Below are positions 661 through 52,112 of a stretch of 64,000 nt of DNA, piece by piece; position 1 is the stretch's first letter, and each line of letters opens with the position of its first letter. Source of the DNA: Lentisphaeraceae bacterium (lineage in GTDB: Bacteria > Verrucomicrobiota > Kiritimatiellia > RFP12 > DVOR01). The translations under genes were made by a program, and so were the position numbers. Under the pieces are notes generated by a model that did not search any database, was not told the DNA's origin, and was given only the letters and a program-made list of their open reading frames with translations. The stretch is from assembly GCA_004555175.1 (NCBI GenBank), contig SFJE01000003.1, positions 1,914 to 65,913 on the forward strand, read 5' to 3'.

Positions 661-805
661 CGCCCCGCGATAGGCGATAGGCGATAGACGGGAACGCTGG
701 CGCGTGAAGTCTGCTCACGTTAGAACCGTCAGGCTTCACGGCTTCTGCCGCCAATAGACCTGTCGCGGTATCGCGCTTCACGCCTATCGCCTATCGCCTA
801 TCGAA
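661..805. repeat. Composite inverted-repeat element: GCGATAG x3 (667-687) and CTATCGC x3 (783-803) arms, an inner CGTGAAG.CTG inverted pair, and a core variant TGTCGCGGTATCGCG at 761-775
   Basis: Direct reading: the arms are reverse complements and the heptamer arrays are tandem. Confidence 0.7.
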
Positions 806-1458
806 TGGCTCCTCCAATGTCCTCCACTTCCACAGTCCCGCTGCGCTCTCGCCTCCTCTCCCTCGCCCTCACCTTCGGCAAGTTCGGGGGGATTACCTTT
901 GGCGGAGGCTACGCGATCATTGCGTTGCTCGAGGAGGAGCTCGTCCGGCGGCGGGGGTGGTTGAGCAGCGAGGAGCTGCTAGACATCATCACCGTGGGCG
1001 AGAGCACGCCCGGGGCCATCGCCGTCAACACCGCCACCTTCGTGGGCTACCGCCTGGCGGGGGTGTTGGGGGGCGTGGTGGCCACCTTTGCGCTAGTCTT
1101 TCCGGCGTGGGTGGTGATTGTGCTCCTCTCGGGGTGCTACCTGGTGCTGCGGGAGAATGTGTGGGTGGCCTCGGCGCTGGCGGGGATCCGCGTGGCGGCG
1201 GTGGTGCTCATCGTCCGCGCCTTCTTCCGAATGGCCAAGGGCGTCAAACGCACGCGCCTGAACTTCATCTGTATGGCGCTGGCCTTCGGGTTGGTGGCCT
1301 TTGCGGGGATGAACGCGGTCTGGGCCGTTATCGGCAGCCTCTGCTTCGGCGTAGCGTGGTATGGCCTGCGCCCCCGCTGGGTTAGTCAACAGTCGACAGT
1401 CGACAGTGAACAGGGCGCAGCAAGCTGCGACGGGCAGACGAGTGGGCAGAAACAATGA
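805..1458 (+). CDS. chrA: Chromate transporter ChrA, short-chain CHR family (first half-size paralog)
   Basis: The translation has the CHR family signature (FGGGYAIIALLEEELV.RRGWLS..E..D....GESTPG) and multiple TM helices. Third-position GC bias supports the frame. The C-terminal ~25 aa (QQSTVDSEQ...) are encoded by tandem heptamer repeats, so the true stop is uncertain. Confidence 0.75.
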   Translation: MAPPMSSTSTVPLRSRLLSLALTFGKFGGITFGGGYAIIALLEEELVRRRGWLSSEELLDIITVGESTPGAIAVNTATFVGYRLAGVLGGVVATFALVFPAWVVIVLLSGCYLVLRENVWVASALAGIRVAAVVLIVRAFFRMAKGVKRTRLNFICMALAFGLVAFAGMNAVWAVIGSLCFGVAWYGLRPRWVSQQSTVDSEQGAASCDGQTSGQKQ

Positions 1459-1535
1459 AGCAACACGGTTCTAACGCCTGCTCCTCCGTCGCGGAACGCG
1501 CCTGTCGACTGCCCACTGTCAACTGTCAACTTCTC
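1381..1535. repeat. Composite repeat: CAGTCGACAGTCGACAGTG (1391-1409), core CCGTCGCGGAACGCG (1486-1500), inverted heptamers CTGTCGAC/CTGTCAAC (1502-1530)
   Basis: Direct reading. The heptamer arrays are in inverted orientation around a spacer. The element overlaps the chrA1 3' end and the chrA1-chrA2 intergenic region. Confidence 0.7.
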
Positions 1536-1552
1536 ACCCCCGGAGCCCGCCT

Positions 1553-2122
1553 ATGATCTACTTGCTGCTTCTGTGGACCTTTATCAAGGTGGGGCTCTTC
1601 ACCATCGGTGGCGGCTACGCGATGATCCCGCTCATCCAGCAGGAGGTCATCGAGCGCCACAACTGGATGACGGCCGACCAGTTTACCGAGTTTGTCGGCA
1701 TTGCCGAGAGCACCCCCGGTCCCTTTGCCATCAACATCGCCACCTTCACCGGCGTGCATGTGGCCCAGGATGCCGGCGGCAGCGGCCTGCTCGGTAGCCT
1801 CTGCACCACCGGCGGCGTCGTCCTCCCCTCGCTCGTCATCATCCTCCTCATTGCCGGGCTCTTCCACTACGCCATGCGCCACTGGGTGGCCCGCGCCGCG
1901 CTCCAAGGCGCCAAGCCCGTCGTCGTTGGCCTCATCGGCGCGGCCGGCTACACCCTCCTGCGCCACACCCTCTGCGAAGGCGGCTTCAAACTCCTTTCCA
2001 CCGGACTCGCCCTCGGCCTCTTGGGGCTCTCCTTCCTCACCAAGCTCGGCGCGGTCTGGCTCATCCTCCTCGGGGCCGCCCTCGGGGTGCTCTGCTTTGG
2101 CGTATTCGGGTTGCAGCCGTGA
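1553..2122 (+). CDS. chrA: Chromate transporter ChrA, short-chain CHR family (second half-size paralog)
   Basis: The translation (FTIGGGYAMIPLIQQEVIERHNWMTADQF..GIAESTPGPFAIN) is the CHR domain. Adjacency to the first chrA suggests a heterodimeric short-chain pair. Confidence 0.8.
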   Translation: MIYLLLLWTFIKVGLFTIGGGYAMIPLIQQEVIERHNWMTADQFTEFVGIAESTPGPFAINIATFTGVHVAQDAGGSGLLGSLCTTGGVVLPSLVIILLIAGLFHYAMRHWVARAALQGAKPVVVGLIGAAGYTLLRHTLCEGGFKLLSTGLALGLLGLSFLTKLGAVWLILLGAALGVLCFGVFGLQP

Positions 2123-2883: not shown

Positions 2884-2928
2884 CCCCAAGCGCCCCCTCC
2901 CCTCTCTCCTCCGTCCGCTGTTTAAGTG

Positions 2929-2962
2929 CTTGCACCGCGCGTGGGGGTGTGCTATGCTACAA
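2929..2962 (+). promoter_or_regulatory. Sigma70-like promoter upstream of pilB: -35 CTTGCA, 18-bp spacer ending TGTGC, -10 TATGCT
   Basis: A near-identical motif (AGTGCTTGC..GGGGGT..GTGTGCTAYRCT) recurs at 62924-62957 upstream of the tRNA cluster. Confidence 0.5.
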
Positions 2963-3015
2963 GCACGATAGATAGAAGGACGCTTCCGCCAGGAGACTGG
3001 CTTGGACCCTTTGGA

Positions 3016-5834: not shown

Positions 5835-5835
5835 G

Positions 5836-7937: not shown

Positions 7938-9131
7938 ATGGTTGAGCGTCCAGATGCGTTGCAACGGTTGCTTTCGTGGAAAGATAAGGACCTGATTAAG
8001 GTTGTCACCGGCATTCGGCGGTGCGGGAAATCGACCTTGTTCTCGTTGTTGCAGGGGCGGTTGCGGGAGATGGGGGTGGCGGATGATCAACTCCATGCTA
8101 TCAACTTTGAGGATCCTGACTGGGCGGAGTTGGACTCTTGGAAGCAGGTCTGGGACGCTCTTAAGCCGCAGATTGAGGATGGCCGTAGGCACTATGTCTT
8201 TCTGGACGAGGTTCAGCAGCTGCCGAACTTTGAGCGGCTCGTCAATGGGTTGTATACGCGCAAGCAAGTCGACCTCTACGTGACGGGCTCGAATGCCTTT
8301 CTGCTCTCGAGCGAGTTGGCGACCTATCTCTCTGGGCGCTATGTTGAACTGCACTTGACGCCGCTCTCGTTTAAGGAGTTTGCTTCCGTTGCGCCAGCGC
8401 AGGAGCCGAGGAGTCAGACTTATCGCCGTTATCTGGTGCAGAGCGGCTTCCCGTATGCGTTGCAACTGCGTGAACCCCAGCACCTTGATGACTACCTCCG
8501 TGGGCTGTTTAATACCATCTTGCTTAAGGATGTGGTGGCGCGTAATGGTTTCAAGGATGTGGCGCTGTTGGGGCGGGTGGTGCGTTTCCTCTTCGATAAC
8601 ATCGGCAACCTCACGACGATCAACAAGATTTGTACGGCCTTCGAGGAGGCGAAGTCGCGCCCCAATGCCCAGACCATTGAGAATTACATTCAGGCGCTGT
8701 GCGATGTCTACATCCTTCATCAGGTCCGCCGTTACGATATTAAGGGCAAGGCGTGGCTGAAGACGAACGCGAAGTATTACCTGGAAGATGTGGGACTTCG
8801 GCGCATCCTCCTAGGAACGCGCGGCGGTGACCTCGGGCGGTTGCTGGAGAATGTGGTTTACCTGGAGCTCTGCCGCCGCCATCGGGAGGTCTATGTGGGC
8901 ATTCTCGACCGCGAGGAGGTCGACTTCGTGGCCATCGATGGGGCGGAGTACACCTACTATCAGGTGGCCCTAACGGTCCGCGATGAGCAGACGCTACGTC
9001 GCGAACTCCGGCCGCTCCAGAAGCTCCCCGGCTCGTATCCTAAGTTCCTGCTTACGCTTGATGATGACCCGGAGCTCTCGCACGAGGGCATTCGCCAAGT
9101 GAATGCCCTCGACTTCCTCTTGCAAGCATAA
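7938..9131 (+). CDS. AAA+ ATPase (AAA_14 + DUF4143 family ATP-binding protein)
   Basis: Walker A GIRRCGKSTL, Walker B VFLDEVQ, and DUF4143-like C-terminal half. Strong RBS. The gene lies in a lower-GC segment. Confidence 0.75.
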   Translation: MVERPDALQRLLSWKDKDLIKVVTGIRRCGKSTLFSLLQGRLREMGVADDQLHAINFEDPDWAELDSWKQVWDALKPQIEDGRRHYVFLDEVQQLPNFERLVNGLYTRKQVDLYVTGSNAFLLSSELATYLSGRYVELHLTPLSFKEFASVAPAQEPRSQTYRRYLVQSGFPYALQLREPQHLDDYLRGLFNTILLKDVVARNGFKDVALLGRVVRFLFDNIGNLTTINKICTAFEEAKSRPNAQTIENYIQALCDVYILHQVRRYDIKGKAWLKTNAKYYLEDVGLRRILLGTRGGDLGRLLENVVYLELCRRHREVYVGILDREEVDFVAIDGAEYTYYQVALTVRDEQTLRRELRPLQKLPGSYPKFLLTLDDDPELSHEGIRQVNALDFLLQA

Positions 9132-12323: not shown

Positions 12324-12325
12324 AG

Positions 12326-12386
12326 GTGGATTAGCTGTTAGCGGTTAGCGGCTAGCTGTTAGCGCGCGTTCCGCGACGGATGGGGT
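12326..12386. repeat. Repeat arm: heptamer array TTAGCTGTTAGCGGTTAGCGGCTAGCTGTTAGCG plus reverse core CGCGTTCCGCGACGG (12365-12379)
   Basis: It is the inverted partner of 12797-12860 across the four-helix-bundle gene. Confidence 0.75.
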
Positions 12387-12752
12387 TTAAGGTTGGGAGT
12401 GGTCTATCTGTGCCTCGAATGCGTGTAGCATCTTGGCGACTTCTTCTGAAAGGGTAAGTACGGGTGCAATATCCGCCTTCGCCAGCAGTTGCACACGCTC
12501 GCAAATATAGAGATGAGTCTGGAGTTCGGCCAAAGAGCCCTGGGCAATCTTTAAGAAGTGCTTCAACTCGTTGTCACGCCGCCGGCCATAGCCTTCTGCA
12601 ATGTTTGCTGGCACCGACACGGCCGCACGGCGCATTTGATCGGCCAGCGCAAAGCGCTCCTCTCCCGGCATCTCCGGGAGGAGACGATAGACCGTCACCA
12701 CCAGGTCCATCGCCTTCTGCCACACCGTCAAATCTTGATAGCTCTTAATCAT
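12387..12752 (-). CDS. Four-helix-bundle protein (23S rRNA intervening-sequence protein family, TIGR02436-like)
   Basis: The translation MIKSYQDLTVWQKAMDL...IAEGYGR is the family hallmark. The ORF extends to 12785, but ATG 12752 is the family-typical start. Confidence 0.7.
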   Translation of the reverse strand: MIKSYQDLTVWQKAMDLVVTVYRLLPEMPGEERFALADQMRRAAVSVPANIAEGYGRRRDNELKHFLKIAQGSLAELQTHLYICERVQLLAKADIAPVLTLSEEVAKMLHAFEAQIDHSQP

Positions 12753-12796
12753 CGTTGCTTGGGCTCGCCGTTGCACGCGCTCCACGTGCTCGATCG

Positions 12797-12860
12797 AAAG
12801 CTTCTCCGTCGCGGAACGCGTGCTAATGGCTAACAGCTAACCGCTAACTGCTGTCGCAAC
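12797..12860. repeat. Repeat arm: core CCGTCGCGGAACGCG (12806-12820) plus heptamer array GCTAATGGCTAACAGCTAACCGCTAACTGCTGTCGC
   Basis: Direct reading. Confidence 0.75.
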
Positions 12861-12865
12861 GCGGC

Positions 12866-13321
12866 TCAGCCGCGGAGGGCGGCAAGGACGCCATCGCGGT
12901 CGGGGGCGGAGATGATGGCTTCGCGGGTGGTCGGATCCATCAGCTTGCGGCTGATGCTACCGAGGAAGACCATATAGCCTGAGCCGGCGGAGGGCGGAAC
13001 GAGCATCAAGATAACGACCTTGGTCGGCTCGCCATCGGGGGCATCGGCCGCGAAGCCATCCTTGTGCACGCCGATGGCGCAGACGAGCTCCTCGACCACA
13101 TCGGTGCGGCCGTGGGGGAGGGCGATTTCGTCGGTCATCACGGTTGAGGCGGACATCTCGCGGCGGACGATGGCCTGCTTGGCTTCGTCCTTCTTGGCCT
13201 CGGGGAGGGCACCGCTAGCGACGAGCGCGTCCATCAGCTCGGCGATGACGCCAAAGATGTCTTCGCTACGCAGCGAGGTGACGACCACGGCCTTTTCCAA
13301 CATCGTGTCATAGGTGTTCAT
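12866..13321 (-). CDS. ptsN: PTS EIIA(Ntr)-like nitrogen regulatory protein (PTS_EIIA_2 domain)
   Basis: 151 aa. The EIIA fructose/mannitol-type fold signature includes an active-site His context (IALPHGR). Confidence 0.7.
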   Translation of the reverse strand: MNTYDTMLEKAVVVTSLRSEDIFGVIAELMDALVASGALPEAKKDEAKQAIVRREMSASTVMTDEIALPHGRTDVVEELVCAIGVHKDGFAADAPDGEPTKVVILMLVPPSAGSGYMVFLGSISRKLMDPTTREAIISAPDRDGVLAALRG

Positions 13322-17924: not shown

Positions 17925-18110
17925 CGTTCGGCCATTCGCGCGCTGGGCCGGATAATCCGGATAATCCGGAAATTCCGGATCATCTGGAGATTCCGGAGGC
18001 GGCCCGCCAATGGGGGGCAGGGGGCAAGGCCCCCCGCGTGAGCGCGCGAGCGAGGGCGCCGAGCGAAGCGAAGGCGCTATGCCAACACGATGGCGGTTCC
18101 GCCGCCGTAA
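17925..18110. repeat. Composite repeat: nonamer array (CCGGATAAT/CCGGAGATT), conserved block GGAGGCGGCCCGCCAATGGGGGRCAGGG, and module GAGCGAAGCGAAGGCGCTATGCCAA
   Basis: Closely matches 34680-34940 (the same modules rearranged). Confidence 0.7.
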
Positions 18111-18142: not shown

Positions 18143-18188
18143 GGGATGTTATAGAGAAACAGAAGGCCCCCGAAGATCATCGGGGGCC
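18143..18188 (-). terminator. Rho-independent terminator of the large exported protein gene
   Basis: Hairpin GGCCCCCGAAGATCATCGGGGGCC followed on the minus strand by a U-rich run (TTCTGTTTCTCT). Confidence 0.7.
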
Positions 18189-18224
18189 GATCCGTCGCGC
18201 GCTAATCGCTAACCGCTACCAACG

Positions 18225-21200
18225 CTACTCCTCGCAGACCAAGCGAATGCCCACATTGGCCACGCGCTGCCAGCGCGGATAGTGAACGCGCAGGGAGACG
18301 CGCGAGAAGCGCGGCAAGAGGTCCCACGCGCCGCCACGGCAGACGACCTCGTCGGTGCCCTCGTAGGTGGAGGCGGTCCACTCGGCGGCATTGCCGATCA
18401 TATCCTTGAGACCGAAGGCGTTGGGCTTGTACTTGCCCACGATGCCCAGGACCTGCTGGCCGTCGTTGTAGCGCATGTCGCGGTGGTAGTAGTTGAGGGT
18501 TTGGCGCTGGTTGGGGATGCCATCGAGGGACTTATCGGCGAGGTTGGCGTAGGGGCCGAAGTTATCCTCCACGCCGCCCCAGTAGAAGGGGGTGTCGGTG
18601 CCGGCGCGGGCGGCCCACTCCCACTCCTCTTCGGTGGGCAGGCGGAACTTCTTGCCGGTCTTCTCGGAGAGCCACTTGCAGTAGGCGTTGGCCTCTTCCC
18701 AGGAAACGCGGACGGCGGGGAACCAGGGGTTGTTCATCACGTCGCAACCGGGGGTGGTGTGATCCTTGCCGAGCTGATCGATGTAGCCATTGTAGTGGGC
18801 GGGCTTCCAGCGCAGGAAGTTGCGCAGGGGCACCTCAATATCGGACATCAAGAAGGGCTTTTTGATGGTGACCGCGCGGGGGGTCTCATCGTGGTAGCCA
18901 TTGGGGTCGCCCATTACGAAGGTACCGGCGGGGATACGCAGGAAGGTGAGCGAGCCGCCGGGCATGTCCACCTGAACCGGCTGGGCCTTGATGCCCGTCA
19001 TCGGCCACCCCTCAACCTTGGGCGGCTCGGGCTTTTCGTGACGCTTCTTGGCGCGCTCCTTGGGCTGGATCTTGGCAATATCGGCGGCACACTTGGCGAA
19101 GTCGTAGGCTTCGGCCTCGATGGCGGAGTCGATATTGGAGACCTGATAGAGGGCGTTCCACTTTTCGCGGCGGGCGCGCGATTCGTTCATCCGCTCGAGC
19201 TGCTGCTGGGCGCCGTGAATGCCAATCCAGTTGCGGTGGAACTCGTTGGCCCAGTTGAGGGCGAAGTCGGTCCAGGTGCCCCAGAAGGGCGCATTGAGGT
19301 CAATCCAGGTGTAGAGCAAGCGCCACTCTTCGTCGGTGAGCTGCACGCCCTTGTGTCCGCGCTTGAGCATCTGAATGAGCACGGAGGTGTTGGCGGCATA
19401 TTCACCGGGGTTGAAGATGTGGTTATCGCTCTCGGGGCCGGGACGGCGGACGTAGGGGTTGAGGTCGTGATAGGAGCGGGTGAAGGCACCGGCGCCACCG
19501 GGGCGCAACCCATCACGATAGGGCAGGATGACCGGCTTGATGCTCGCCAGGTTCGGGCGGCGGCCGGTGAGCGACTGCTTGCCGTAGGGGCCATCCATCG
19601 TCATGTCGGTGTCGGTGGTCTCGTCGTTATGGCACTGAGCGCAGTTGCGCGTGAGGATGGGCTGAATATCGCGCATGAAGCTCCAGGTGAGCCCGCCACA
19701 GATCGAGGGCTCGAGCGCATCGGGCTTCGTCAGCAGCGGCGGCACATTGTAGATGGAGTTGGCCGACTCGTGGCAGCCGGTACAAGCCACCTTTTCGCCG
19801 GGCATCCCCACGAACCACGAGCGCATCAGCTGGATGGCCTGACCGTTGGCGTCCAGCGGCTGCAGGGCAATAGGCGTATGGGCCGGGGCCACAAAGTAGA
19901 CCGAGCCATCCTCGCGCACCGGCGCGGTGCCCAGGACATACTTCATATCCCAGCTCGACTCGGTGCCCACGCCTTCGTGCGAGCCTGCCTTATTATAGGC
20001 GTAGTGATAGGCAAAGACGCGCACCTGCTTGACCGTCCCGCGCGGCACGCCACGCAGCCCCGGGCCGTTGTAGATGTCGGCCACGTGCACGGTGCAGGTC
20101 TTCTCGCCGGGGACGATGCTGTCGGGGTAGACCGGCGGCGGGGTGGACTGCTCAAAGCGGATCGGCTCGGTGAGCGAGGAGCCCTCGATTTCGCACAGGA
20201 GCGTGAGGTTGTCGAAGACGTCCACCAGGTAGATGCCCCAGAGGTCCTCGCCACTGGCACGCATGGCGGTGAGGAAGTACTTGCCGGCGCCATCCTTGCG
20301 CGGGTTGTGGCCGAGCGGGAAGGGGGTGAGGAACTTGGGCCAGTCGCCCGCGTAGAGGTAGTCCTCAATGCGCTCGGGGATGGGCTTCTTCCAACCGGGG
20401 ATCATCTGCTCGCAACCGGCGGCCTCGGCACGGCCCTTGGAGACGTCGAAGAGCGCCAAGCGCCCGGCCTTGGAGGCGTGGTGACCGGTGGCCACGCAGA
20501 TAAACTTACCGTTCGCGCCGGGGATGGGCTTGGGGTCGCCATAGTGGTTGGGCCAGAAGCCGTTGGAGCCGAAGTAGGCCAGCTGACGGGTGCCGTCCGG
20601 GCGCATCGTCATCAGGATGCGGCTGAAGAAGTGGGTCTGATCGCAATACTCCCAGCGGACGAACATCACGCGTCCGTCATCGAGCATGGTGGGCGACCAG
20701 TTGGAGTCCTGGTCAAAGGTCAGGCGCTCCATCTTGTCGGTGGCCGGGTCGTAGCGATAGGTGTTGGTCATCGCCATGCGACCCGATTCGCAGGGCAGCC
20801 CCTGCTCGGAGGCGGTGGCCGTCACGATAAACTTGCCATCGGGCAGATAGCAGCCATCGCCAATGTCGTAATCCACGCCCTTGGGGGTGATTGGCTTGGC
20901 CTCGCCCTCGCCAAAGCGGTACTCCCAGAGCTTGAGGCGGTTGCCGTCCGCGGGGTCCTTCTTCACAAAGCAGACCCGCTTGGCATCCCAATTAAGGTCC
21001 ACGCAAGTCACCGACGCGCGCGGGGAGTTATAGAGCACCTCCACCTTCGGCGTCTCGGCCGCGAGGTCGGTAATCTTCACCAACTGCGAATTGATGCCGT
21101 GGTTGGCCTCCACCACATTGTAGCAGGCCATACTCGGCTGCGCCGGCGCATTCTGCCGCCGCGCATTCGGCCCGAAGTCATACTTCATCGCCAGCACTTC

Positions 21201-21639: not shown

Positions 21640-21800
21640 CCGGCCGTAAACTAATAAGACCCCGTCTTATTGGCAACAAGACCCCGTCTTATTGGCAACA
21701 AGACGGGGCCTTAATAATTCCCGCCGCCCCGGGGGGAAGTTTTCGCCCGGCGTGCGGGAAGTTACGCCAGCCCGAGGCACAGTTTTCCGGCGGGAGCGGT
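21640..21800. repeat. Partial copy of the promoter-proximal element with 22-mer hairpin units (AATAAGACCCCGTCTTATTGGCAAC x2 inverted, x1 direct) and a GAGCGGTTAGT module, upstream of tolB
   Basis: Shares the unit sequence with 42509-42606 and 59523-59619. TTTGCTACAAT sits at 21905. Confidence 0.6.
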
Positions 21801-33460: not shown

Positions 33461-33581
33461 ATCAGCTCGCTACGCCCGCGATGACAGAGGACGAAAAGAA
33501 GATGACAGAGGCCCCGGTCAATATCCGTCGCGGCACGCGTCCTGTCATCTGTTCTCTCCACTCGCCACACGCGAGCACACC
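33461..33581. repeat. Variant repeat element: GATGACAGAG x2, core variant CCGTCGCGGCACGCG, and CTGTCATCTG arm
   Basis: Direct reading. It lies in the mreB-mreC intergenic region. Confidence 0.55.
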
Positions 33582-34679: not shown

Positions 34680-34940
34680 AGCGGTTGGCTGCTAGCCGCG
34701 CTAAGGTGCTCGCTATCGCTCGCGTGAAGGCCGAGCGAAGCGAAGGCGCTATGCCAAAACGGTGAAGGCTGAGGCGCGCTAGGCCGGATCATCCGGAGAT
34801 TCCGGAGATTCCGGAGATTCCGGAGGCGGCCCGCCAATGGGGGACAGGGCGCGTTGGCCGGGGTGGAGCGCCCTGCGCTCCCGGGGTACAGGGCGAGCAA
34901 GTCCGAGCGAAGCGAAGGAGCTATGTCATCGCCCTGCCTA
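34680..34940. repeat. Composite repeat: module GAGCGAAGCGAAGG[C/A]GCTATG x2 flanking nonamer array CCGGAGATT x3 and block GGAGGCGGCCCGCCAATGGGGGACAGGG
   Basis: Near-identical modules to 17925-18110. Confidence 0.7.
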
Positions 34941-37332: not shown

Positions 37333-38454
37333 CTATGCGTCTAGTTCTGCGCGCCAAGCTTCGGTGCCGCAGAGTTTGGTCATCCACTCGGGGCGGGCTT
37401 GGGGATGGGCGAAGAGGCGCTCGGGACCGTAGCGGCGGTGGAGGGTGCGCAGGAGGGCGCAAGTGACGGCCCAGGGGCGGAAGGTGCGCGCGTTGGTGAC
37501 GTGCAGGCGGATGGCACCTTGGTCGGGGGCTTGGGTGAAGTCGTGGAAGGTGATGCCGGGGAGGGCGAGGGCGTTGAGTTCGGCGGCGAGGCGCTCGCCC
37601 TCGAACCAGGGGGCGGAGAGGACGCGGAAGGCGTAGGCGGTGGCGCGGGCGATGTCGAGCTGCGGGAGGGCCTCGGCGAAGACGGTGGCCGGGTAGATGC
37701 GCGCAGTCTCCCAGGAACGGATGGCGGGAGAGGGGGGGATGAACTCGGGCACGGGCGGCCGCTCAAAGGGCGGACAAGGGGCGGTCATTGGCGCGGCCAG
37801 GTGAGGGAGACCGGAGAAGGCGGCGATTTCGGTGGGGAGGCGGCCGTGGACAAGGGGCAAGGCGCAGGGGGCCACGAAGGAGAAGTGCTCCGGCTCGGCC
37901 ACGGGGCCGTCTTCGATGGTGTGCCAGGGGATGGGGCGGTCGCAGACCAGGCAGGGGAGCTTGGCTTCGGCGCAGGCTTCGAGGGTGAGGAGCAGGGTGG
38001 CGAGGTAGGTGTAGCAACGCACGCCGAGGTCTTGGAGGTCGACGATGAGCAGGTCGAGCCCCGCGAGCATCTCGGGGGTGGGCTTGCGGTGCTGGCCGTA
38101 GAGGGAGTGGACGGGGATGCCCCAGAGCGGATGGGTGGCCGAGGCAGTGCGCTCGCCGGCGGCCGCCACGCCGAAGTAGCCGTGCTCGGGGCCAAAGAGG
38201 GCGCGCAAGTTCGCCCCAAAGACTCGCCGGCAGGCCTGCGCGGCGGTTTCGCCCGTGCTCAGGAGCGCAGCCTGGTGGGAGAGCAACCCCACGCGTAGCC
38301 TTCGATCGGCCGTGGCGAGCCAGGCCTCGATGCCGGCGTAGTTGGCTACGCCGGCATCAGCGGACAGCGGACAGCCGTTAGCTGCTAGCACGCGTGCCGC
38401 GACGGGCCGGCTAGCGGCAGAAACATCAAGGGGAGCACTCTCGACCATAGGCAT
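37333..38454 (-). CDS. DUF1343 family protein (NamZ-like exo-acetylmuramidase family)
   Basis: Motif LLSHQAAL...ALFGPEHGYFG typical of DUF1343. The N-terminal ~35 codons of the ORF are translated from the repeat element at 38345-38405, so the real start is probably internal. Confidence 0.65.
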   Translation of the reverse strand: MPMVESAPLDVSAASRPVAARVLAANGCPLSADAGVANYAGIEAWLATADRRLRVGLLSHQAALLSTGETAAQACRRVFGANLRALFGPEHGYFGVAAAGERTASATHPLWGIPVHSLYGQHRKPTPEMLAGLDLLIVDLQDLGVRCYTYLATLLLTLEACAEAKLPCLVCDRPIPWHTIEDGPVAEPEHFSFVAPCALPLVHGRLPTEIAAFSGLPHLAAPMTAPCPPFERPPVPEFIPPSPAIRSWETARIYPATVFAEALPQLDIARATAYAFRVLSAPWFEGERLAAELNALALPGITFHDFTQAPDQGAIRLHVTNARTFRPWAVTCALLRTLHRRYGPERLFAHPQARPEWMTKLCGTEAWRAELDA

Positions 38455-38507
38455 CTCCGTCGCGGAACGCGCGCTAACCGCTAGCAGCTAACCGCTATTT
38501 TTGCGGC
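38345..38507. repeat. Complete empty composite element: heptamers CAGCGGACAGCGGACAGCC+GTTAGCTGCTAGC, reverse core variant ACGCGTGCCGCGACGG, ~70-bp spacer, core CCGTCGCGGAACGCG (38467-38481), heptamers GCTAACCGCTAGCAGCTAACCGCTA
   Basis: Direct reading. Confidence 0.7.
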
Positions 38508-39292
38508 GCTTGCGCCACGAGGATAAGGGTGGTGGGGATAGCCTCACACTCGTCGAGGGCGGCGAGCCAATCATCGGAGGCGTAGGCGGGGTTGGGAACG
38601 GCGGGGGGCTCTTCCAGGCGCAGAAGGGTAAGGCCGGCGGCGCGGAAGGCGTTGAACCAGGCGCTGACGGGATAGGCGCGCGAGGCGATGGGCGCGTTGG
38701 TGCCGTCGGGCTGCTCGCGGATGTCATCGAGGGGGTGGAAGTAGTTGACCAGGAGGCGGCCCCAGGTGGAGGTGCCGTCGTCGTTCTCGGCCTCCACCCA
38801 TTCGCCATTATAGACGGGGTGGACGGTGGAGAGGACGAAGGTGCCGCCGGGCTTGAGCCAGCGGGCCACGCGCTTGACGAGACCAAAGGGGTCGTCAACG
38901 AACTCGAACGCGTGCGAAGAGGTGATGAGGTCGTAACTCGCCTCGGGGGCGGAGAAGGCCTCGATGGCGCCCTGGCGGAAGTCGATGGAGAGTCCGGCCT
39001 GGGCGGCATCGGCACGGGCGTAGGCGAGCTGCGCTTCGGAGATATCCAGGGCGGTGCAGAGCAGGCCGCGGCGAGCGAGGTAGAGGGAGTTTTGGCCTTC
39101 ACCGCAGCCGAGCTCGAGGGCGGTCATGCCGGGCGAGAGGGGGGGCAAAAGACGGAGTTCGCGATCGCCGGGCAGGAGCGGACCGTAGTGGAAGTCCGAG
39201 CTATCGATGCGCGTGATGGCGCGGTAGTCGGCGGCGATGGCATTCCAGTAGCGGCGCTGGGGCTCGCTGTGCAGGTGGCTGTCATCGGCCAT
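38495..39292 (-). CDS. Class I SAM-dependent methyltransferase
   Basis: Motif I LELGCGEGQN with a post-I acidic residue. 265 aa. Confidence 0.75.
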   Translation of the reverse strand: MADDSHLHSEPQRRYWNAIAADYRAITRIDSSDFHYGPLLPGDRELRLLPPLSPGMTALELGCGEGQNSLYLARRGLLCTALDISEAQLAYARADAAQAGLSIDFRQGAIEAFSAPEASYDLITSSHAFEFVDDPFGLVKRVARWLKPGGTFVLSTVHPVYNGEWVEAENDDGTSTWGRLLVNYFHPLDDIREQPDGTNAPIASRAYPVSAWFNAFRAAGLTLLRLEEPPAVPNPAYASDDWLAALDECEAIPTTLILVAQAPQK

Positions 39293-39851
39293 CTGTCATC
39301 CCCTTTTTCCGCTGCCAGAGGCTCCAGAGGATGACGCTCTTCCCATCGTCGAGGGTGCCGGCGTCAATGGCGCGGTCAATCTCCTCGGCAGAGAGGAGGA
39401 CGGGCTTAAGATTCTCGTCGGTGTCGAGTTGCTGGGCGAGGGGGGTGGGCTTAAGCAGGGCGTGGAAGTGGTAGTGCACCTCATCGCAGTAGCCCGGGGA
39501 GGGGAGGGTCGAGCCGAGATAGGTGAGGCGGTCGACCTCATAGCCGCTCTCTTCGCGCGTTTCGCGCAGGGCGGCTTCCTCGGGCTTCTCGCCGGGCTCC
39601 ATACAACCGGCCACCACCTCCAGCAGGGTGCGCTCCACGGCCTTACGATATTGGTGGACGAGGAGATAGCGGCCATCGGGCAACTGGCAGAGGATGCAGA
39701 CCGCGCCGCGGTGGCGCATCACTTCGCGCGTGGTCCGGCGGCCGTCGGGCATCTCGATGTCCAGCACATCCACCACCACTGCGCGGCCCTCAAAGGCACG
39801 GCGCGTGGCGAGGGTCTTCTCCACAAAGTCTTGCGCTTCAATCGCTTCCAT
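39282..39851 (-). CDS. NUDIX hydrolase (ADP-ribose pyrophosphatase-like)
   Basis: Nudix box GCMEPGEKPEEAALRETREESG. Confidence 0.8.
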   Translation of the reverse strand: MEAIEAQDFVEKTLATRRAFEGRAVVVDVLDIEMPDGRRTTREVMRHRGAVCILCQLPDGRYLLVHQYRKAVERTLLEVVAGCMEPGEKPEEAALRETREESGYEVDRLTYLGSTLPSPGYCDEVHYHFHALLKPTPLAQQLDTDENLKPVLLSAEEIDRAIDAGTLDDGKSVILWSLWQRKKGMTDGR

Positions 39852-42410: not shown

Positions 42411-42660
42411 GGTGCTCATTGTCATACTCCTTTCACATTAGACAGTTTCAACCGTTCAAGCACCGCCATCATATCCCACTTCCGCGCTGGGTTAACTCGC
42501 TTCCCGAGCGACTTGAATGAATAAGGCCCCGTCTTGTTGCAAATAAGACGGGGCCTTGTTGCGAATAAGACGGGGCCTTATTACCAATAAGACGGGGCCT
42601 TATTAGTTGCGCTCCGCCGAGCGGTTAGTTCTCTCCGCGCCGCGTGATAATCCGCGCCGC
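42411..42660. repeat. ~250-bp promoter-proximal element, copy 1 (about 90% identical to 59417-59670) with a 22-mer array at 42509-42606 (one inverted plus three direct AATAAGACGGGGCCTTRTTRNN units)
   Basis: Direct alignment of the two loci. TTTGCTACAAT at ~42706 sits upstream of aroK/B. Confidence 0.75.
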
Positions 42661-42742
42661 CGAGGCACTCTAAGCACGGTCAGCGCACAGGGTACGCGGG
42701 GGTTTGCTACAATTTGGGCGAAGAAGGAGCTTGAAAGACGGT

Positions 42743-45551: not shown

Positions 45552-45700
45552 CGCGTCCTCCCCTCCCCCCAAAAAAGCCCCGCGAGCGCCCCGTCTTCAG
45601 CCGCGAAGCGGTAACCGCTTGCGCCGAGAGCGTGTTGCGTGCTATAGTATAGGCATTGCTTGGGGCAAGTCCGCCTTGGGCATCAATGGAGAGAGAAACC

Positions 45701-45871: not shown

Positions 45872-45892
45872 CACCTGCGTACGTCCGTGGAT

Positions 45893-45935
45893 GGAGGTTT
45901 GGATGCCCGTTGGGCCCAAGCCTCCATTTTTATTT
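45893..45935 (+). terminator. Rho-independent terminator after the ferredoxin gene
   Basis: Hairpin GGAGGTTTGGATGCCCGTTGGGCCCAAGCCTCC followed by ATTTTTATTT. Confidence 0.75.
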
Positions 45936-45936
45936 A

Positions 45937-46092
45937 AGCAGACAGCCCGCGTTCCGCGACGGGCAGATGTTTCCTCCCAATTATGTGCTTCTCACGGCTC
46001 AGACGGGCCTTCCACCTTAAGCGCCAGCACGATGGCATAGCTCCTTCGCTAACGCTACGGACTTGTCAGCTGTCGGCTGTCAGCTGTTGGCT
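45937..46092. repeat. Composite repeat: reverse core CGCGTTCCGCGACGG (45948-45962), spacer, module CGATGGCATAGCTCCTTCGCTAACGCTACGGACTTG (inverted copy of 51965-52000), and heptamers TCAGCTGTCGGCTGTCAGCTGTTGGCT
   Basis: Direct reading. It overlaps the first 15 codons of the annotated decarboxylase ORF. Confidence 0.7.
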
Positions 46093-46107
46093 ATCATCTC
46101 CTCCCCT

Positions 46108-49001: not shown

Positions 49002-50200
49002 AGCCTTCCACCCTGCCGCCCGAACTCTGCGAGGAGATCCGCACGCGCGTCTTCGCCCCGGGCTTTATCCGTCTGACCCAGTCGCTCGTGCGCGAGGGCA
49101 AGTCCTTCCGTATTTCCCTGCGCCCGGTGCGCCTGAAGGGCGAAACCTTTCTCCAGGCCGAGATGGTCGATGACGGCCGCACCCAGGTTCGCAACCTCAC
49201 CGAGGCCGCCGCCCGCAAGGGGCTCGACGAAATCCTCGCCCAGAGCGGCAAGCGCGACCTGCACCTCGTCTCCCGCGAGGGCGACCTCCATATCCGCGTT
49301 ACCAAGAAGGAGCGCGCGCTCGTCGCCCGCGGCAAGGCCAAGACCGCCCCCGAGGCACCCGAAGCCGCCCCCGAGCCCGAGGCGAACCACGACCGTATCA
49401 AGAAGCAGCCACTGAATAGCTTTGACTCGGCCGCGCTCCTGCGCGTGTTGGGTCTGGCCGATGAGCGTGGCGCCCTCAAGCCCTCGATGCGCGGAAAGTA
49501 CGACCAGGTCAACGCCTTGCTGCGCGCCGTCGAGCCCCTGTTGCCCCCCGAAGCGCCCGCGCGCTTCACCATTGTCGATTGCGGTTGCAGCAAGGCCTAC
49601 CTCACCCTCGCCCTCCACGCCTACCTCACCCAGGGCAAGGGCTGGCCGTGCGTCAGCACCCTGGGCATCGACCGCAATGCCGGCGTCATTGCCTCCGCCC
49701 AGAAGATGGCCACCACCCTCGGCCTGGCCCAGGAGGTTGAGTTCCGCGCCTGTGCCATTGCCGAGGCCGACTTCCCTGAGGCCCCCAACCTAGTGATGAG
49801 CTTACACGCCTGCGACACGGCTACCGACGACGCCCTCATCGCCGCCGTTCGCGCCAAGGCCCAGAGCCTCCTCTGCGTTCCCTGCTGCCAGCACGAGCTC
49901 CACCACGCCCTCGACAATGGCGGCGGAGCCATGCGCGCGCTCCTGCGCCACGGCATCCTCCGCGAGCGCCTGGCCGACCTGCTCACCGACACCTTCCGCG
50001 CCCAGGTCCTGCGCATCTGCGGCTACCGCGCCCGCGTGATGGAGTTTGTCTCGCAAGAGGCCACCGGGCGCAACATCCTCATCCGCGCCGAGCGCGGCCT
50101 GCGCCCGGGCCTAGGCGAGGCCGAAGCCGAATACCGCGCCCTATGCGACCTTTGGCAGGTGGAGCCGTATATTGGGCGAGCATTACTCGCGAGCGAGTAA
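48998..50200 (+). CDS. SAM-dependent methyltransferase (Methyltransf_32/METTL25-like)
   Basis: Motif I IVDCGCSKAYLTLAL, motif LHACDTATD, and a CC.HEL cysteine cluster. The start overlaps the upstream stop (ATGA). Confidence 0.7.
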   Translation: MKPSTLPPELCEEIRTRVFAPGFIRLTQSLVREGKSFRISLRPVRLKGETFLQAEMVDDGRTQVRNLTEAAARKGLDEILAQSGKRDLHLVSREGDLHIRVTKKERALVARGKAKTAPEAPEAAPEPEANHDRIKKQPLNSFDSAALLRVLGLADERGALKPSMRGKYDQVNALLRAVEPLLPPEAPARFTIVDCGCSKAYLTLALHAYLTQGKGWPCVSTLGIDRNAGVIASAQKMATTLGLAQEVEFRACAIAEADFPEAPNLVMSLHACDTATDDALIAAVRAKAQSLLCVPCCQHELHHALDNGGGAMRALLRHGILRERLADLLTDTFRAQVLRICGYRARVMEFVSQEATGRNILIRAERGLRPGLGEAEAEYRALCDLWQVEPYIGRALLASE

Positions 50201-50212
50201 TGCTCGCCCAAT
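50171..50212 (+). terminator. Perfect 19-bp inverted repeat hairpin (ATTGGGCGAGCATTACTCGC/GCGAGTAATGCTCGCCCAAT) containing the methyltransferase stop codon
   Basis: Direct reading. No obvious U-run follows, so it may act as a structure rather than a classical terminator. Confidence 0.5.
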
Positions 50213-50340
50213 AGCTGTTAGCTGTTAGCGGCTAGCTGTTAGCGCGCGTTCCGCGACGGATAGGCTGGAGGCGGCCCCTCACACGCCCCTTACCCGAGTT
50301 TGCCCGTCGCGGAACGCGGCTGTCCGCTGTCGGCTTGAAG
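50205..50340. repeat. Complete empty composite element: heptamers AGCTGTTAGCTGTTAGCGGCTAGCTGTTAGCG, reverse core (50245-50259), 44-bp spacer, core (50304-50318), heptamers GCTGTCCGCTGTCGGCT
   Basis: Direct reading. Confidence 0.75.
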
Positions 50341-50356
50341 CGGCGCTAGCCGCTTC

Positions 50357-51928
50357 TCACGCCAGGCGCAGGAAGATGACCTTGTGGACGGCGCGGGAGA
50401 TGGCGGTGTAGAGGGCCGGGCCGTTCCAGGCGGGGTCGTTTTCGGTAACGTCAAGCAAGATGAGGATGGGCGCCTCGAGGCCCTTAAACTTGCGGTAGGT
50501 GAAGTAGCGCAGACCGGGGAAGGCGGCGAGGAGGGGGTCGAGGTCCATCTTGGGGAGGACATGGGCGCCGAGGAGGAGGATGTCGCGCACCGGGATGGCT
50601 TGGACCTCGGTGAGCTGGCACAGGAGCGCGGCGAGGTGCTCGCGGAGCTTGGCGCGGGTGGGGAAGCGATAGTGCTCGCAGGGTTCGCCAGGTGGGGCGC
50701 TGGGGAGGATGCGCGTGGCTTCGCCGGCGTAGGGCTTGAGGAGGTCGAAGACGGTGCGGGTGTTGCGGCAGTTGGTGGTGAGCTTCGCCTCGGGCCAAGG
50801 GAAGGCAGGGATGGCCTCGAGGTTGCGCTGGAAGATGTTCTGCGCCGGGTCGTAGAAGACGATGAAGCCGCTGCGCTCGGGCACCAGGGCGGAGACGACT
50901 TGACAAAGCGCCGGGGAGAAGTCCTGCCCCTCGTCAACAATGACGCAATCGTAGGGCGAGCGCTCGGCGAAGGCCTTGGCCACGGGCACGGCATCGCGCG
51001 CGAGGGTGTGCCAGAATTCGCGCGAGCCATCATCCTGACGCCCGAGCAACTCGCAAAGCAAATCGTAGATGGCCACGGCACGGATGCGTGGCTCGGGGGC
51101 CGTGACATTGCGCAGGTGCTCGGCGAGGAGCAGATTGAAGCAGAGCAGAAGGACGCGCTTGCCCTCGGCGGCCAACTGGGCGGCGCGGCGCAGGGCCAGG
51201 AGCGTCTTGCCCGAGCCGGCGCAGCCGCGCACGCGCAGGCGGGGGAACTGCGAGAAGGCATCGAAGGCGACCGCTTGGTCCTGCGTCAGCCGAGCGAGAC
51301 TGGCATCGCTCAGGAGCCGGCGCTGACTCCAGCCCGGGCGGTAGGCCACGCGCGGGGCGAAGAGGGTGCGCAGGCGCACGCGCAGCGCTTCGCCGGCCTC
51401 GATGGAGAGTGGGGCGGGGGGCTGGAAGATGGTGGCGCGTGGGGAGGCGAAGAGGCGGCAGAAGGCCGCCTCGGGGTGCGGCAGGTCCTCAGCATAGAGG
51501 GTGATGCCCTGAAGGTCAATCGGCTCGTGCGCCGGCCGCAGGGAGAAGGGGAGCCAGACGGCGTGGCAAAGGGGCAGCGGGAAGGGGGCCACCGCGAGTT
51601 CCCGGCAGAGAATGCGCAGCAGGGCGTGGGCGTTGCGCGTGGCCTGTTCGGCGGGGGAAGCGCGCATCTTGCGGCCATTTTGGAACCACCCTTCGCGGGT
51701 GCAGAGCACCTCGCCGCCCTTCACCTCCAGCACCAAGAGTCCGTGTTGCGGGTGGAAGCAGAGGAAGTCCACTTCGCCCTCGCCCGCCGGCAGCCCCTCC
51801 TCGAGGTCCGAGTACGCCAGCGACCACCAGACGCTCCACCCCTCGGGCAAGTTCAGCTCCAGCGCCCGGAAGACGTAGCGCTCGGCCTGCGGCCCGCTAC
51901 CGAAGAAGTTAGGGATGAGTTCTGCCAT
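50357..51928 (-). CDS. NERD-domain nuclease fused to a UvrD/PcrA-like SF1 helicase ATPase
   Basis: NERD motif GEVDFLCF..GLLVLEVKGG, Walker A GCAGSGKT, motif II VIVDEGQDF, and a UvrD_C-like tail. 523 aa. Confidence 0.75.
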   Translation of the reverse strand: MAELIPNFFGSGPQAERYVFRALELNLPEGWSVWWSLAYSDLEEGLPAGEGEVDFLCFHPQHGLLVLEVKGGEVLCTREGWFQNGRKMRASPAEQATRNAHALLRILCRELAVAPFPLPLCHAVWLPFSLRPAHEPIDLQGITLYAEDLPHPEAAFCRLFASPRATIFQPPAPLSIEAGEALRVRLRTLFAPRVAYRPGWSQRRLLSDASLARLTQDQAVAFDAFSQFPRLRVRGCAGSGKTLLALRRAAQLAAEGKRVLLLCFNLLLAEHLRNVTAPEPRIRAVAIYDLLCELLGRQDDGSREFWHTLARDAVPVAKAFAERSPYDCVIVDEGQDFSPALCQVVSALVPERSGFIVFYDPAQNIFQRNLEAIPAFPWPEAKLTTNCRNTRTVFDLLKPYAGEATRILPSAPPGEPCEHYRFPTRAKLREHLAALLCQLTEVQAIPVRDILLLGAHVLPKMDLDPLLAAFPGLRYFTYRKFKGLEAPILILLDVTENDPAWNGPALYTAISRAVHKVIFLRLA

Positions 51929-51929
51929 A

Positions 51930-52112
51930 GCGTTATAGCCGACAGCGGACAGCCGACAGCGGACAAGTCCGTAGCGTTAGCGAAGGAGCTATGCCATCGA
52001 GCTGGCGCTCGATGTGGAAGGCCCGTCTGAGCCGTGAAGGGCACTCTTGCCAAGCCAACAGCCCCTCCGTCGCGGAACGCGGCTGTCCGCTGTCCGCTGT
52101 CGGCTGTCCGCT
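51930..52112. repeat. Composite repeat: heptamers GCCGACAGCGGACAGCCGACAGCGGACAAG, module GTAGCGTTAGCGAAGGAGCTATGCCATCG, spacer, core (52067-52081), heptamers GCTGTCCGCTGTCCGCTGTCGGCTGTCCGC
   Basis: Direct reading. It lies immediately upstream (5') of the NERD-helicase gene. Confidence 0.75.

Follow-up and report, generated by a model that had tools for sequence, protein, structure and literature searches.

What kind of repeat recurs between the genes of this window (the whole 64-kb stretch of DNA analysed here), how has it spread, and what allows it to persist? A reading made from the sequence only had proposed a family of modular repeats built around a 15-nt core, and this family is genuine: in a motif scan of the window the core, CCGTCGCGGAACGCG, is matched 10 times with at most one mismatch, compared with 0.04 matches expected by chance, and modules align across loci. 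The matches lie at 8 loci, and one degenerate and one truncated copy come in addition. Within the core, conserved bases precede a mini-palindrome, CGCG-N3-CGCG. The core matches (position and strand) and the features discussed below are:

Core matches: 1486+, 12365-, 12806+, 33525+, 38391-, 38457+, 45948-, 50245-, 50304+, 52067+
667-803: E1, inverted GCGATAG x3 and CTATCGC x3 arrays with a degenerate core, CTGTCGCGGTATCGCG, at 760-775; fills the gap from the malic-enzyme gene to chrA1
1384-1531: E2, AGTCRAC array, variant inner motif GCGCAGCAAGCTGCGACGG, spacer, core 1486-1500, CTGTCRA array
12331-12852: E3, gene-bearing; GTTAGCN array 12331-12364, reverse core 12365-12379, IVP gene, core 12806-12820, GCTAACN array 12821-12852
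12387-12752, minus strand: IVP gene (S23p; Avd-related), 121 aa, four-helix bundle of the 23S rRNA intervening-sequence protein (IVP) family
17925-18110: core-less locus of a separate repeat family, CCGGAKAWT nonamer arrays and 24-nt module 2
18183-18225, plus strand: half element, truncated core CCGTCGCG (mini-palindrome collapsed) followed by a CGCTAAT/CGCTAAC array
33479-33556: E5, (A)GATGAC-type units, core CCGTCGCGGCACGCG at 33525-33539, complementary CTGTCATC arm; fills the 121 nt that separate mreB and mreC
34727-34928: core-less locus, second copy of the nonamer/module-2 family, module 2 at 34733 and 34905
38354-38497: E7, double-core; mixed arrays, reverse core 38391-38405, 51-nt spacer, core 38457-38471, GCTAACN array
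45937-46096: E8, asymmetric; truncated array, reverse core 45948-45962, conserved interior with short module 2, GTCAGCT/GTCGGCT array
50212-50335: E9, double-core; GTTAGCN array, reverse core 50245-50259, 44-nt spacer, core 50304-50318, GCTGTCS array; between two convergent genes
51937-52112: E10, asymmetric; AGCSGAC array, short module 2, interior, core 52067-52081, GCTGTCS array; between the DHO-dehydrogenase and NERD-helicase genes
59710-59751, plus strand: solitary array, GTCATCT x6 (AGATGAC on the other strand), without core or inverted partner

The membership of the family had to be revised. Eleven loci had been listed as sharing the core; eight do so with at most one mismatch and 661-805 contains the degenerate copy, whereas 17925-18110 and 34680-34940 lack the core and were rejected as members, as they belong to the nonamer/module-2 family (17957-18022 and 34784-34849 are 89% identical). 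The truncated core, which runs directly into CGCTAAT, lies just outside 17925-18110. Module 2 had been described as co-occurring with the core, but in a search of the window its full 24-nt form is confined to the two core-less loci (18061, 34733 and 34905); a shorter relative, GTTAGCGAAGGAGCTATGCCAT, does stand beside the core in E8 and E10. Finally, 12326-12386 and 12797-12860, listed as two loci, are a single element that encloses a gene.

Outward of every core in the window runs a tandem heptamer array, and an array always follows the core in related loci from all four Candidatus Spyradenecus genomes compared as well. The anchor of the heptamers is AG on the 5' side of an element and CT on its 3' side. 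Complete units of array, reverse core, spacer, core and array are found, as described earlier, at E7 and E9. The assertion that each locus has a different 7- to 9-mer did not hold, since the same heptamer types recur: GCTAACN arrays lie at 12.3, 12.8, 18.2, 38.4 and 50.2 kb, and GCTGTCS arrays at 38.36, 46.07, 50.32, 51.94 and 52.09 kb. Entire modules of array and core are shared by several loci at identities of up to 98% (over 50 nt between 12332-12381 and 50212-50261), and E8 and E10 are 93% identical over 103 nt. Modules of array and core have been copied between loci.

Two such modules standing head to head amount to a hairpin of 30-50 bp. Upon folding, five of the seven complete units have z between -3.5 and -7.1 on each strand, among them E1 (arms of 27 nt, 93% complementary; z = -6.6 and -7.1), and weak hairpins (z = -1.0 to -2.0) form at 33461-33581 and 45930-46100. 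The arms of E3 are 48 nt long, 88% complementary and 424 nt apart. Arms are not always complementary, as E9 combines a GTTAGCN-type left with a GCTGTCS-type right arm. Mismatches within the hairpins show no excess of G-U on either strand (80 G-U versus 81 A-C on the sense strand), and there is thus no sign of selection on pairing at the RNA level.

The central clue, which had been missed, is that one copy bears an IVP gene, and that genes of this family generally sit within heptamer-array hairpins. E3 sits between a PTS-EIIA gene and ileS, all three genes being on the minus strand, and its gene matches PF05635 (E = 1e-37), TIGR02436 (E = 5e-35) and the pentameric structure XCC0516 (PDB 2GSC; E = 9e-20). 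We take the IVP to be an Avd-like pentamer; by analogy with DGR Avd, it would be expected to bind nucleic acids. No other protein is consistently linked to the elements. A single IVP copy was seen; the ends of E3 match those of gene-less copies at 98%, 95% and 91% identity, and in a reading of the sequences the gene-less spacers resemble neither the IVP gene nor its untranslated regions.

Inverted arms, ends common to gene-less and gene-bearing copies, and an element content that varies between genomes at one site (see below) might also be explained if the elements were ordinary MITEs, derived by deletion from a DNA transposon and mobilised by a classical transposase acting on terminal inverted repeats. 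However, no target-site duplication is visible by eye at any element boundary, no transposase was called nearby, the enclosed gene encodes a four-helix bundle without a known catalytic fold, and arm length changes in 7-nt steps, all of which make this explanation highly improbable.

In many phyla, and in genuine 23S rRNA intervening sequences (IVSs) too, IVP genes are flanked by inverted heptamer arrays. Our sample comprised about 80 distant IVP homologs from metagenomic loci, 58 of them usable for inverted-repeat scoring; flanking inverted repeats are present at about 53 of these 58 (scores of 13-49 versus shuffle maxima of about 9-13), and in 24 of the 25 top-scoring loci, read by eye, the arms are heptamer arrays. 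These arms are inverted, and the heptamer varies from locus to locus. Among the possible periods, 7 alone scores best in 52 of the 73 upstream and 46 of the 70 downstream IVP flanks, compared with 1 of 54 and 1 of 45, respectively, in controls about 1 kb away, and 50 of 55 heptamer units contain AG (35.7 +/- 3.1 expected from shuffled units). The sample includes two genuine 23S rRNA IVSs, and their stems are likewise heptamer arrays. In Azospirillum lipoferum (locus L262) the IVP lies within the LSU rRNA gene and the heptamers are GACAGAG/GACGGAT; other named examples are Nostoc punctiforme pNPUN01 and Picosynechococcus (cmr2-IVP-cmr3). At the other IVP loci with arms that were read, nothing corresponds to the 15-nt core.

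These findings also bear on a REPIN-like origin, in which a REP-associated tyrosine transposase (RAYT) from another part of the genome would recognise the core as a REP, with the inverted double-core unit as the replicating entity. The inverted 15-mer doublets, 44-51 nt apart and able to form hairpins, together with single or decayed copies, fit the description of REPINs as hairpins of inverted, conserved 15-16-mer doublets with a short spacer, with single copies as remnants and a gene flanked by inverted copies (PMC3116915), and a small palindrome with conserved bases ahead of it is present in the core. Yet the stem of this palindrome measures only 4 bp, REPs do not have tandem heptamer arms, and arms built in the same way surround IVP genes of many phyla without this core. 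The gene between the inverted cores encodes an IVP instead of a RAYT, and no RAYT (or Y1-transposase domain), transposase or reverse transcriptase was called between 2.4 and 62 kb of the window or in related loci (about 90 kb of non-redundant sequence). The claim that the repeats are more structured than ordinary REPs is borne out, as they are more elaborate, and we consider a REPIN-like origin improbable.

Slippage-driven change of the arrays had been suggested, and the comparison of the four genomes agrees with it: at orthologous loci array lengths differ by exactly 7, 14 or 21 nt, which are slippage-sized steps. In strain B, E7 is 7 nt longer (one extra heptamer) and the array of the half element exactly 21 nt (three heptamers); the array of E8 is 21 nt longer in strains B, C and D. 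E2 is present in strain B, with differences concentrated at the variable heptamer positions. Elements at a single site have also been replaced or recombined. The E1 site of strain B holds a different element with AGATGAC-type arrays; the E9 site has two element types as alleles among the four genomes, as well as a chimera joined at the core; and at the E10 site strains B and D carry an AGTCGAC-type element instead, with both arms changed together, and strain C a chimera. Chimeric alleles mix the two types, and the join is at the core in the clearest case. Swapped elements differ in heptamer type and interior while their flanks stay 97-99% identical, and the site upstream of ileS has three structurally different alleles, one with a single array only.

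Three sites were compared in four genomes, and each was always occupied by an element, never empty, so that a host function is possible. The elements might then be regulatory rather than selfish, serving as transcript-processing sites, cistron insulators or regulator-binding arrays for the downstream gene. Their intergenic positions are common to all four genomes compared, in six elements the array ends 1-21 nt ahead of the downstream start codon, and 27 of 54 upstream arrays contain stops in all three frames, compared with 11.9 in shuffles. TAACTGA heptamer repeats of Beggiatoaceae are similarly placed (PMC4679880) and inverted heptamer-array pairs of Xanthomonas hold their position between species (PMC4692102). 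However, the exchange of whole elements between nearly unchanged flanks and the divergent ileS alleles argue against a sequence-specific function, the neighbouring genes are functionally unrelated, and the link to the IVP is left unexplained, the Coxiella IVS paper placing the IVP gene in a selfish element (PMC4990558). We thus regard a host regulatory role as unlikely.

Of the eight complete elements with a core, seven are flanked by genes of one and the same orientation; they are thus probably co-transcribed with their neighbours, and several fill short spacers. Of the three genes for which co-option into coding sequence had been proposed, two do run into an element. The chrA1 ORF ends within E2 (stop codon 1456-1458; seen in two genomes), and the NamZ/DUF1343 gene has its called in-frame start codons within E7, the called start lying in the spacer; no other in-frame ATG, GTG or TTG was seen ahead of the conserved N-terminal segment. 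The 5' extension of the decarboxylase gene over E8 is an artefact of ORF listing, as this gene is called at 730 aa from ATG 46108, 13 nt downstream of the element.

Taken together, we think it somewhat probable that the repeats are a genus-level (Candidatus Spyradenecus, Lentisphaerota), mostly ORF-less expansion of IVS-type heptamer-hairpin palindromic intergenic elements outside rRNA. Their basic module is the core with its mini-palindrome and an outward heptamer array; a head-to-head pair of modules, or a single module with a module-2 end, encloses a spacer of 44-130 nt or, at one locus, the IVP gene. The gene-less copies may relate to the IVP-bearing element as MITEs do to an autonomous element. 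Arrays probably change by slipped-strand mispairing, and RNase III probably cleaves the long double-stranded RNA stems, by analogy with rRNA IVSs, in which case the elements could persist without harm to their neighbours. The architecture that these repeats share with the surroundings of IVP genes connects two long-unexplained features of bacterial genomes.

Among known systems, DGR Avd has the same pentameric four-helix-bundle fold as the IVP. The IVP shows weak similarity to Avd (PF22296, E = 6e-7; NF033474, E = 9e-7; both below curated cut-offs), but no reverse transcriptase gene was called beside it in the window, nor was any DGR template repeat or variable repeat noticed. REPINs and RAYTs differ in the points given above: the flanked gene, the tandem heptamer arms, the minimal palindrome and the lack of a RAYT in the sequence covered. 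The heptanucleotide repeats of Calothrix PCC 7601 are known as STRR. Three tandemly repeated heptanucleotides have been reported for this strain, and other intergenic heptamer repeats are Xanthomonas GGGAATC, Nostoc GGGGA(C/T)T and Beggiatoaceae TAACTGA (PMC4692102, PMC4679880). They resemble the window elements in being tandem 7-mers in intergenic DNA, which keep their positions between species and vary in length, some directly upstream of start codons, and 70-75 Xanthomonas repeats form inverted pairs like the arms described here (PMC4692102). In contrast to our elements, those reports describe no conserved core, deal with the repeats alone, in the passages covered without a link to IVP genes or IVSs, and follow one chosen motif per study, whereas several heptamer types coexist in the window.

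The closest relatives are the rRNA IVSs with an S23p/IVP ORF of Coxiella, Leptospira, Brucella, Xanthomonas and Azospirillum lipoferum, which likewise have a long stem around a PF05635 four-helix-bundle ORF, the stem consisting of tandem heptamers in strain-variable number (GACAGAT x2-3 in Coxiella). They are inserted in rRNA helices, whereas the window elements lie in spacers between protein-coding genes, are without an ORF in seven of the eight complete core-bearing copies, and add a genus-specific 15-nt core; RNase III excision has been shown for rRNA IVSs, and for the window elements cleavage would follow by analogy. In Coxiella, two to three GACAGAT repeats precede the S23p ORF, and the first of them is where RNase III cuts; this IVS is described as a selfish element, with the origin and mobility of IVSs treated as unresolved (PMC4990558). 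Its GACAGAT heptamer is a rotation of the AGATGAC units found at 33.5 and 59.7 kb in the window.

The repeats of the window form a genuine family, whose modules recombine and have been copied between loci. The window matches the 159-kb metagenome contig k141_160762 (ENA ERZ27309572), and proteins that cluster with its own at 90% identity carry the names Candidatus Spyradenecus sp. or Lentisphaeraceae, an assignment to the Lentisphaerota within the PVC group. In a scan of the window, which has a GC content of about 64% and whose gene calls are housekeeping genes plus a low-GC McrBC island, the 15-nt core CCGTCGCGGAACGCG was observed ten times with at most one mismatch, compared to an expectation of 0.04, and a tandem heptamer array lies directly outward of each of these ten cores. 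The core is extragenic and abundant, and its palindrome is confined to CGCG-N3-CGCG. Inverted doublets with two cores are present at 38391/38457, at 50245/50304 and, around the gene of a four-helix-bundle protein (S23p, here termed IVP), at 12365/12806. The complete unit proposed from the sequence alone, consisting of an array, a reverse core, a spacer, a core and a second array, was recovered at two loci, with spacers of 51 and 44 nt. Element arms are 23-48 nt long and 83-100% complementary and form an extended stem, with hairpin z-scores down to -7; for five out of seven complete units the hairpin z-score lies between -3.5 and -7.1 on both strands, and the units at 33461-33581 and 45930-46100 fold weakly (z = -1.0 to -2.0). 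No Rfam family matched any element at gathering thresholds, and a scan for sigma-70 promoters and intrinsic terminators between 45.5 and 52.5 kb detected none inside the elements, with counts at the level of shuffled sequence.

Some details of the family depart from the sequence-only reading. The assignment of the core to its loci stands with the restriction that 661-805 carries only the degenerate form CTGTCGCGGTATCGCG, and 17925-18110 and 34680-34940 have no core and belong to a separate family with CCGGAKAWT nonamers and a 24-nt second motif (module 2). This composite repeat (17925-18110 and 34727-34928) combines the nonamer arrays, which contain a TCCGGA palindrome, with a common 66-nt segment and the 24-nt module GAGCGAAGCGAAGGMGCTATGCCA, and has neither a core nor an Rfam match. 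A truncated core followed by an array is found at about 18183-18225. The heptamer arrays, supposed to be specific for each locus, are of a few types common to several loci (AGCNGTT, AGCSGAC, AGTCRAC, AGGCGAT, AGATGAC), and all heptamer types of the window have AG as the anchor of the 5' arm and CT as that of the 3' arm. An array-plus-core module is common to 12332-12381 and 50212-50261 (98% identity over 50 nt), and 45992-46094 matches 52037-51935 at 93% identity over 103 nt. The arms of element E9 (50212-50335) are non-complementary, so that a core with its adjoining array is the basic unit. At 50170-50213, a perfect inverted repeat of 21 bp (TATTGGGCGAGCATTACTCGC, GC, complement) adjoins E9 at the 3' end of a methyltransferase gene.

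Two loci that had been counted separately, 12326-12386 and 12797-12860, are actually a single element (E3), in which a minus-strand ORF of 121 aa lies between arms of 48 nt.

12387-12752, minus strand: IVP gene, 121 aa, between two cores; match to PF05635 with E = 1e-37

The protein matches both PF05635 (128.9 bits, cut-off 33.8) and the four helix bundle protein family TIGR02436 (119.9, cut-off 24) over the full length; it also matches the solved pentameric structure XCC0516 clearly and the families of Avd, the accessory protein of DGRs, weakly. The ends of E3 share 91-98% identity with the ends of the gene-less copies, and the core-bearing copies other than E3 are all without an ORF. We infer that the gene-less copies are related to the IVP-bearing element and non-autonomous. 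Neither alignment nor reading of the sequences found any similarity between their spacers and the IVP gene, which gives no support to an origin of these spacers by deletion of the gene.

The architecture of the window family is that of IVP gene settings generally, including true intervening sequences (IVSs) of rRNA. We analyzed a metagenomic sample of 80 loci with IVP homologs 42-55% identical to the window protein, from samples of 40-64% GC, about 70 of which are long enough on each side of the gene. An inverted repeat that clearly exceeds shuffled controls flanks the gene in about 53 of the 58 loci that have 200 nt of flanking sequence on each side. Inspection by eye of the 25 metagenomic loci with the highest scores showed, in 24, arms of tandem heptamer arrays whose unit varies from locus to locus (e.g. 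AGGGACT, AGTGGGC, AGGTAAC, GAGTTGT, AGGCATT). A period of 7 stands alone as the best lag upstream of these genes in 52 of 73 flanks and downstream in 46 of 70, compared to 1 of 54 and 1 of 45 control regions about 1 kb away; IVP loci of a viral collection likewise show period 7 (26/39 upstream, 19/39 downstream). With 40% G and 13% C, the 5' arm is rich in G, and the 3' arm complements it; AG occurs in 50 of 55 heptamer units (35.7 +/- 3.1 expected from shuffled units), and the AG positions are the most conserved ones of the unit. Inverted heptamer arrays thus form a hairpin around the IVP gene in about two thirds to nine tenths of the sampled loci, according to the criterion applied. Individual loci illustrate the range of settings:

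Nostoc punctiforme plasmid pNPUN01: IVP locus with GGGTGTG arrays
Picosynechococcus: IVP element lying between cmr2 and cmr3
Azospirillum lipoferum: IVP located within an LSU rRNA gene; stems of GACAGAG/GACGGAT

A location in LSU (23S) rRNA was found for 2 of the 135 IVP loci sampled outside the window. In Nostoc sp. PCC 7120 plasmid gamma, the IVP coding sequence (607-957 of the locus) has an AAACTTC array upstream and a CTGCCYT array downstream; the arms are non-complementary, as in E9, because the two array types are unrelated. We regard the association of IVP with heptamer arrays across phyla as a more important result than the window family itself.

Parts of an IVS-type interpretation are weakened by four results: mismatches in the hairpins, 80 G-U and 81 A-C, show no G-U bias as a sign of selection on RNA pairing; the IVP ORF holds no excess of the heptamer of its own locus as a possible internal template (13 occurrences, 11.0 expected); gene-less spacers and IVP gene are dissimilar; and the occupancy of element sites is stable. 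A search with the bare 15-mer in a genome collection of 596 Gb gave 120 single matches in unrelated high-GC genomes, none with a heptamer array; the pattern is too short for such an amount of sequence. The paired-core pattern had no match in the metagenome collection, from which the lineage thus seems to be missing.

The dynamics of the elements were followed by comparing the window (A) with three related genomes, B (GCA_051884755.1), C (GCA_051884775.1) and D (GCA_022778925.1); a full alignment was made for the pair A-B, and flanks are about 97-99% identical by reading of the alignment. The core is conserved, with an array following it, in related loci from all four genomes. Heptamer arrays change in 7-nt steps: the length polymorphism that had been anticipated amounts to 7 nt at E7 (38354-38497), 14 nt at E9 (C versus A) and 21 nt both at E8 (45937-46096) and at the half element at 18.2 kb, and substitutions in E2 (1384-1531) are concentrated at the variable heptamer positions. 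At the sites of E1 (667-803), E9 and E10 (51937-52112), B and D carry a different element, in which the heptamer type has switched on both arms together and the interior differs as well. In addition, E9 of D is a chimera in which the left half of B and the right array of A are fused at the core, and E10 of C starts with B-type outer units and continues with an A-type remainder. Three alleles exist in the PTS-EIIA/ileS spacer, namely the full IVP element in A, the right array only in B, and in C the left array plus half a core.

12324-12865 of the window: PTS-EIIA/ileS spacer allele
12972-13061 of locus L125 of a related genome: PTS-EIIA/ileS spacer allele
12975-13027 of locus L127 of a related genome: PTS-EIIA/ileS spacer allele

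Simple excision does not account for this site, as the IVP-less alleles are not derivable from the window allele by one clean deletion. Among the four genomes no empty site was found for E8, E9 or E10, and this stable occupancy leaves room for a host function. Genes for AAA_14/DUF4143 and AAA-ATPase_like/PDDEXK_9 proteins also vary in presence and position among the related genomes, beside syntenic housekeeping genes.

7938-9131 of the window; 16282-19116 of L125; 19061-20416 of L127; 13193-14788 of related locus L209: AAA_14/DUF4143 and AAA-ATPase_like/PDDEXK_9 genes

Seven out of eight complete core-bearing elements are located between same-strand genes, and in six the array ends 1-21 nt ahead of the next start codon; most elements are thus probably co-transcribed. 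RNase III probably cuts the long double-stranded RNA stems, by analogy with rRNA IVSs. Of three genes suggested to have taken up element sequence, two do so: the chrA1 ORF stops within E2 in both A and B, so that about 25 C-terminal codons are element-encoded, and the called start of NamZ (DUF1343) lies within the E7 spacer in A and B, where reading of the sequence found no other in-frame ATG, GTG or TTG ahead of the conserved N-terminal segment. The supposed 5' extension of the decarboxylase is an artefact, because the gene starts at the ATG at 46108. The ORF 51991-53097 is likewise spurious, the true gene being a DHO dehydrogenase on the minus strand. In practice, the elements produce spurious ORF extensions and changed gene ends in annotation.

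The window holds further repeats and features. Tandem 22-nt units AATAAGACGGGGCCTTATTNNN of alternating orientation, which form GC-rich hairpins, constitute a second repeat family (21649-21720, 42515-42608, 59519-59612), at two sites within a 239-nt repeat (42423-42661 and 59427-59665, 93% identical). The low-GC island (55777-59424, 48-52% GC) encodes McrB (56052-57761) and McrC (57758-59083) and is bracketed by inverted repeats of 131-134 nt (55777-55907 and 59291-59424, 92% identical); it looks strain-specific, since another gene occupies the position upstream of the riboflavin operon in strain B. An FMN riboswitch (55376-55497, minus strand, 79 bits) is located upstream of ribBA / ribH / nusB, and a cluster of five tRNA genes (62963-63405) contains a tandem tRNA-Glu(CTC) pair in a direct repeat of 91 nt (98% identical).

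Taken together, the window family belongs to the IVS-type heptamer-hairpin elements, as a new variant that bears a core and mostly lacks an ORF. IVP genes are associated with heptamer arrays; a causal role of the protein is put forward here as a hypothesis. It is conceivable, if rather unlikely, that IVP and inverted AG-anchored heptamer arrays constitute one widespread, unrecognised class of selfish elements, of which 23S rRNA IVSs are a small subset and whose arms are produced or maintained in an IVP-dependent manner. For such upkeep, the pentamer might bind one heptamer per subunit, or IVP might assist, as a cofactor similar to Avd, a polymerase or reverse transcriptase that is provided in trans. 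If true, this would explain a large part of the heptamer-repeat excess known from bacterial genomes, including the heptanucleotides of Calothrix/Nostoc and the GGGAATC pairs of Xanthomonas. Heptamer excess, cyanobacterial repeats, Xanthomonas inverted pairs, sporadic 23S rRNA IVSs and the "four helix bundle / S23 ribosomal" genes, a very large family with no assigned function, are possibly one entity.

In the accessible parts of the literature, heptamer excess, cyanobacterial repeats, Xanthomonas pairs, IVSs and S23 genes are treated separately, the Coxiella paper noting the heptamers of its own IVS. No accessible paper was found to state that IVP genes and inverted heptamer arrays are generally linked; the Coxiella IVS paper alone draws such a connection, for that species only, and the accessible text of the heptamer-repeat papers on Xanthomonas and Beggiatoaceae does not mention IVP. 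Our study adds that most IVP genes of a metagenomic sample lie within a heptamer hairpin, and that a Lentisphaerota genus (Candidatus Spyradenecus) has amplified a gene-less version with an added core. IVP genes have been reported within CRISPR-Cas operons (PMC3936711). In the intergenic DNA of Xanthomonas, GGGAATC arrays make up 70-75 inverted pairs, conserved in position and variable in length (PMC4692102), and in Beggiatoaceae TAACTGA repeats are located just upstream of start codons (PMC4679880).

Among known systems, the elements resemble REPINs in forming hairpins from inverted doublets; no RAYT (REP-associated tyrosine transposase), other transposase or reverse transcriptase was called in the window between 2.4 and 62 kb, and no RAYT (Y1 transposase) in about 90 kb of non-redundant related loci. 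MITEs have inverted arms as well and share their ends with an autonomous transposase element, whereas the window copies share theirs with the IVP-bearing copy, with no transposase, and reading of the sequence found no direct (target-site) duplication at any copy. Classical IVSs are located in rRNA, whereas all window copies lie between protein-coding genes, in a window without rRNA. The elements are IVS-like in the extended stem built from a long terminal inverted repeat, in the optional S23p/IVP ORF in the loop (E3 only) and in stem heptamers of strain-variable copy number, a feature reported for Coxiella and generalised here that is not formally a defining one. In the IVS of Coxiella burnetii, GACAGAT is repeated in tandem two or three times, depending on the strain, upstream of the S23p ORF, and RNase III cuts at the first of these repeats (PMC4990558). 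Solitary arrays at 59710-59751 (GTCATCT x6) and 39279-39300 (CTGTCAT x3), which have neither a core nor an inverted partner, consist of the unit of this Coxiella stem. Within the window family itself, the AGATGAC units are a rotation of the Coxiella GACAGAT.
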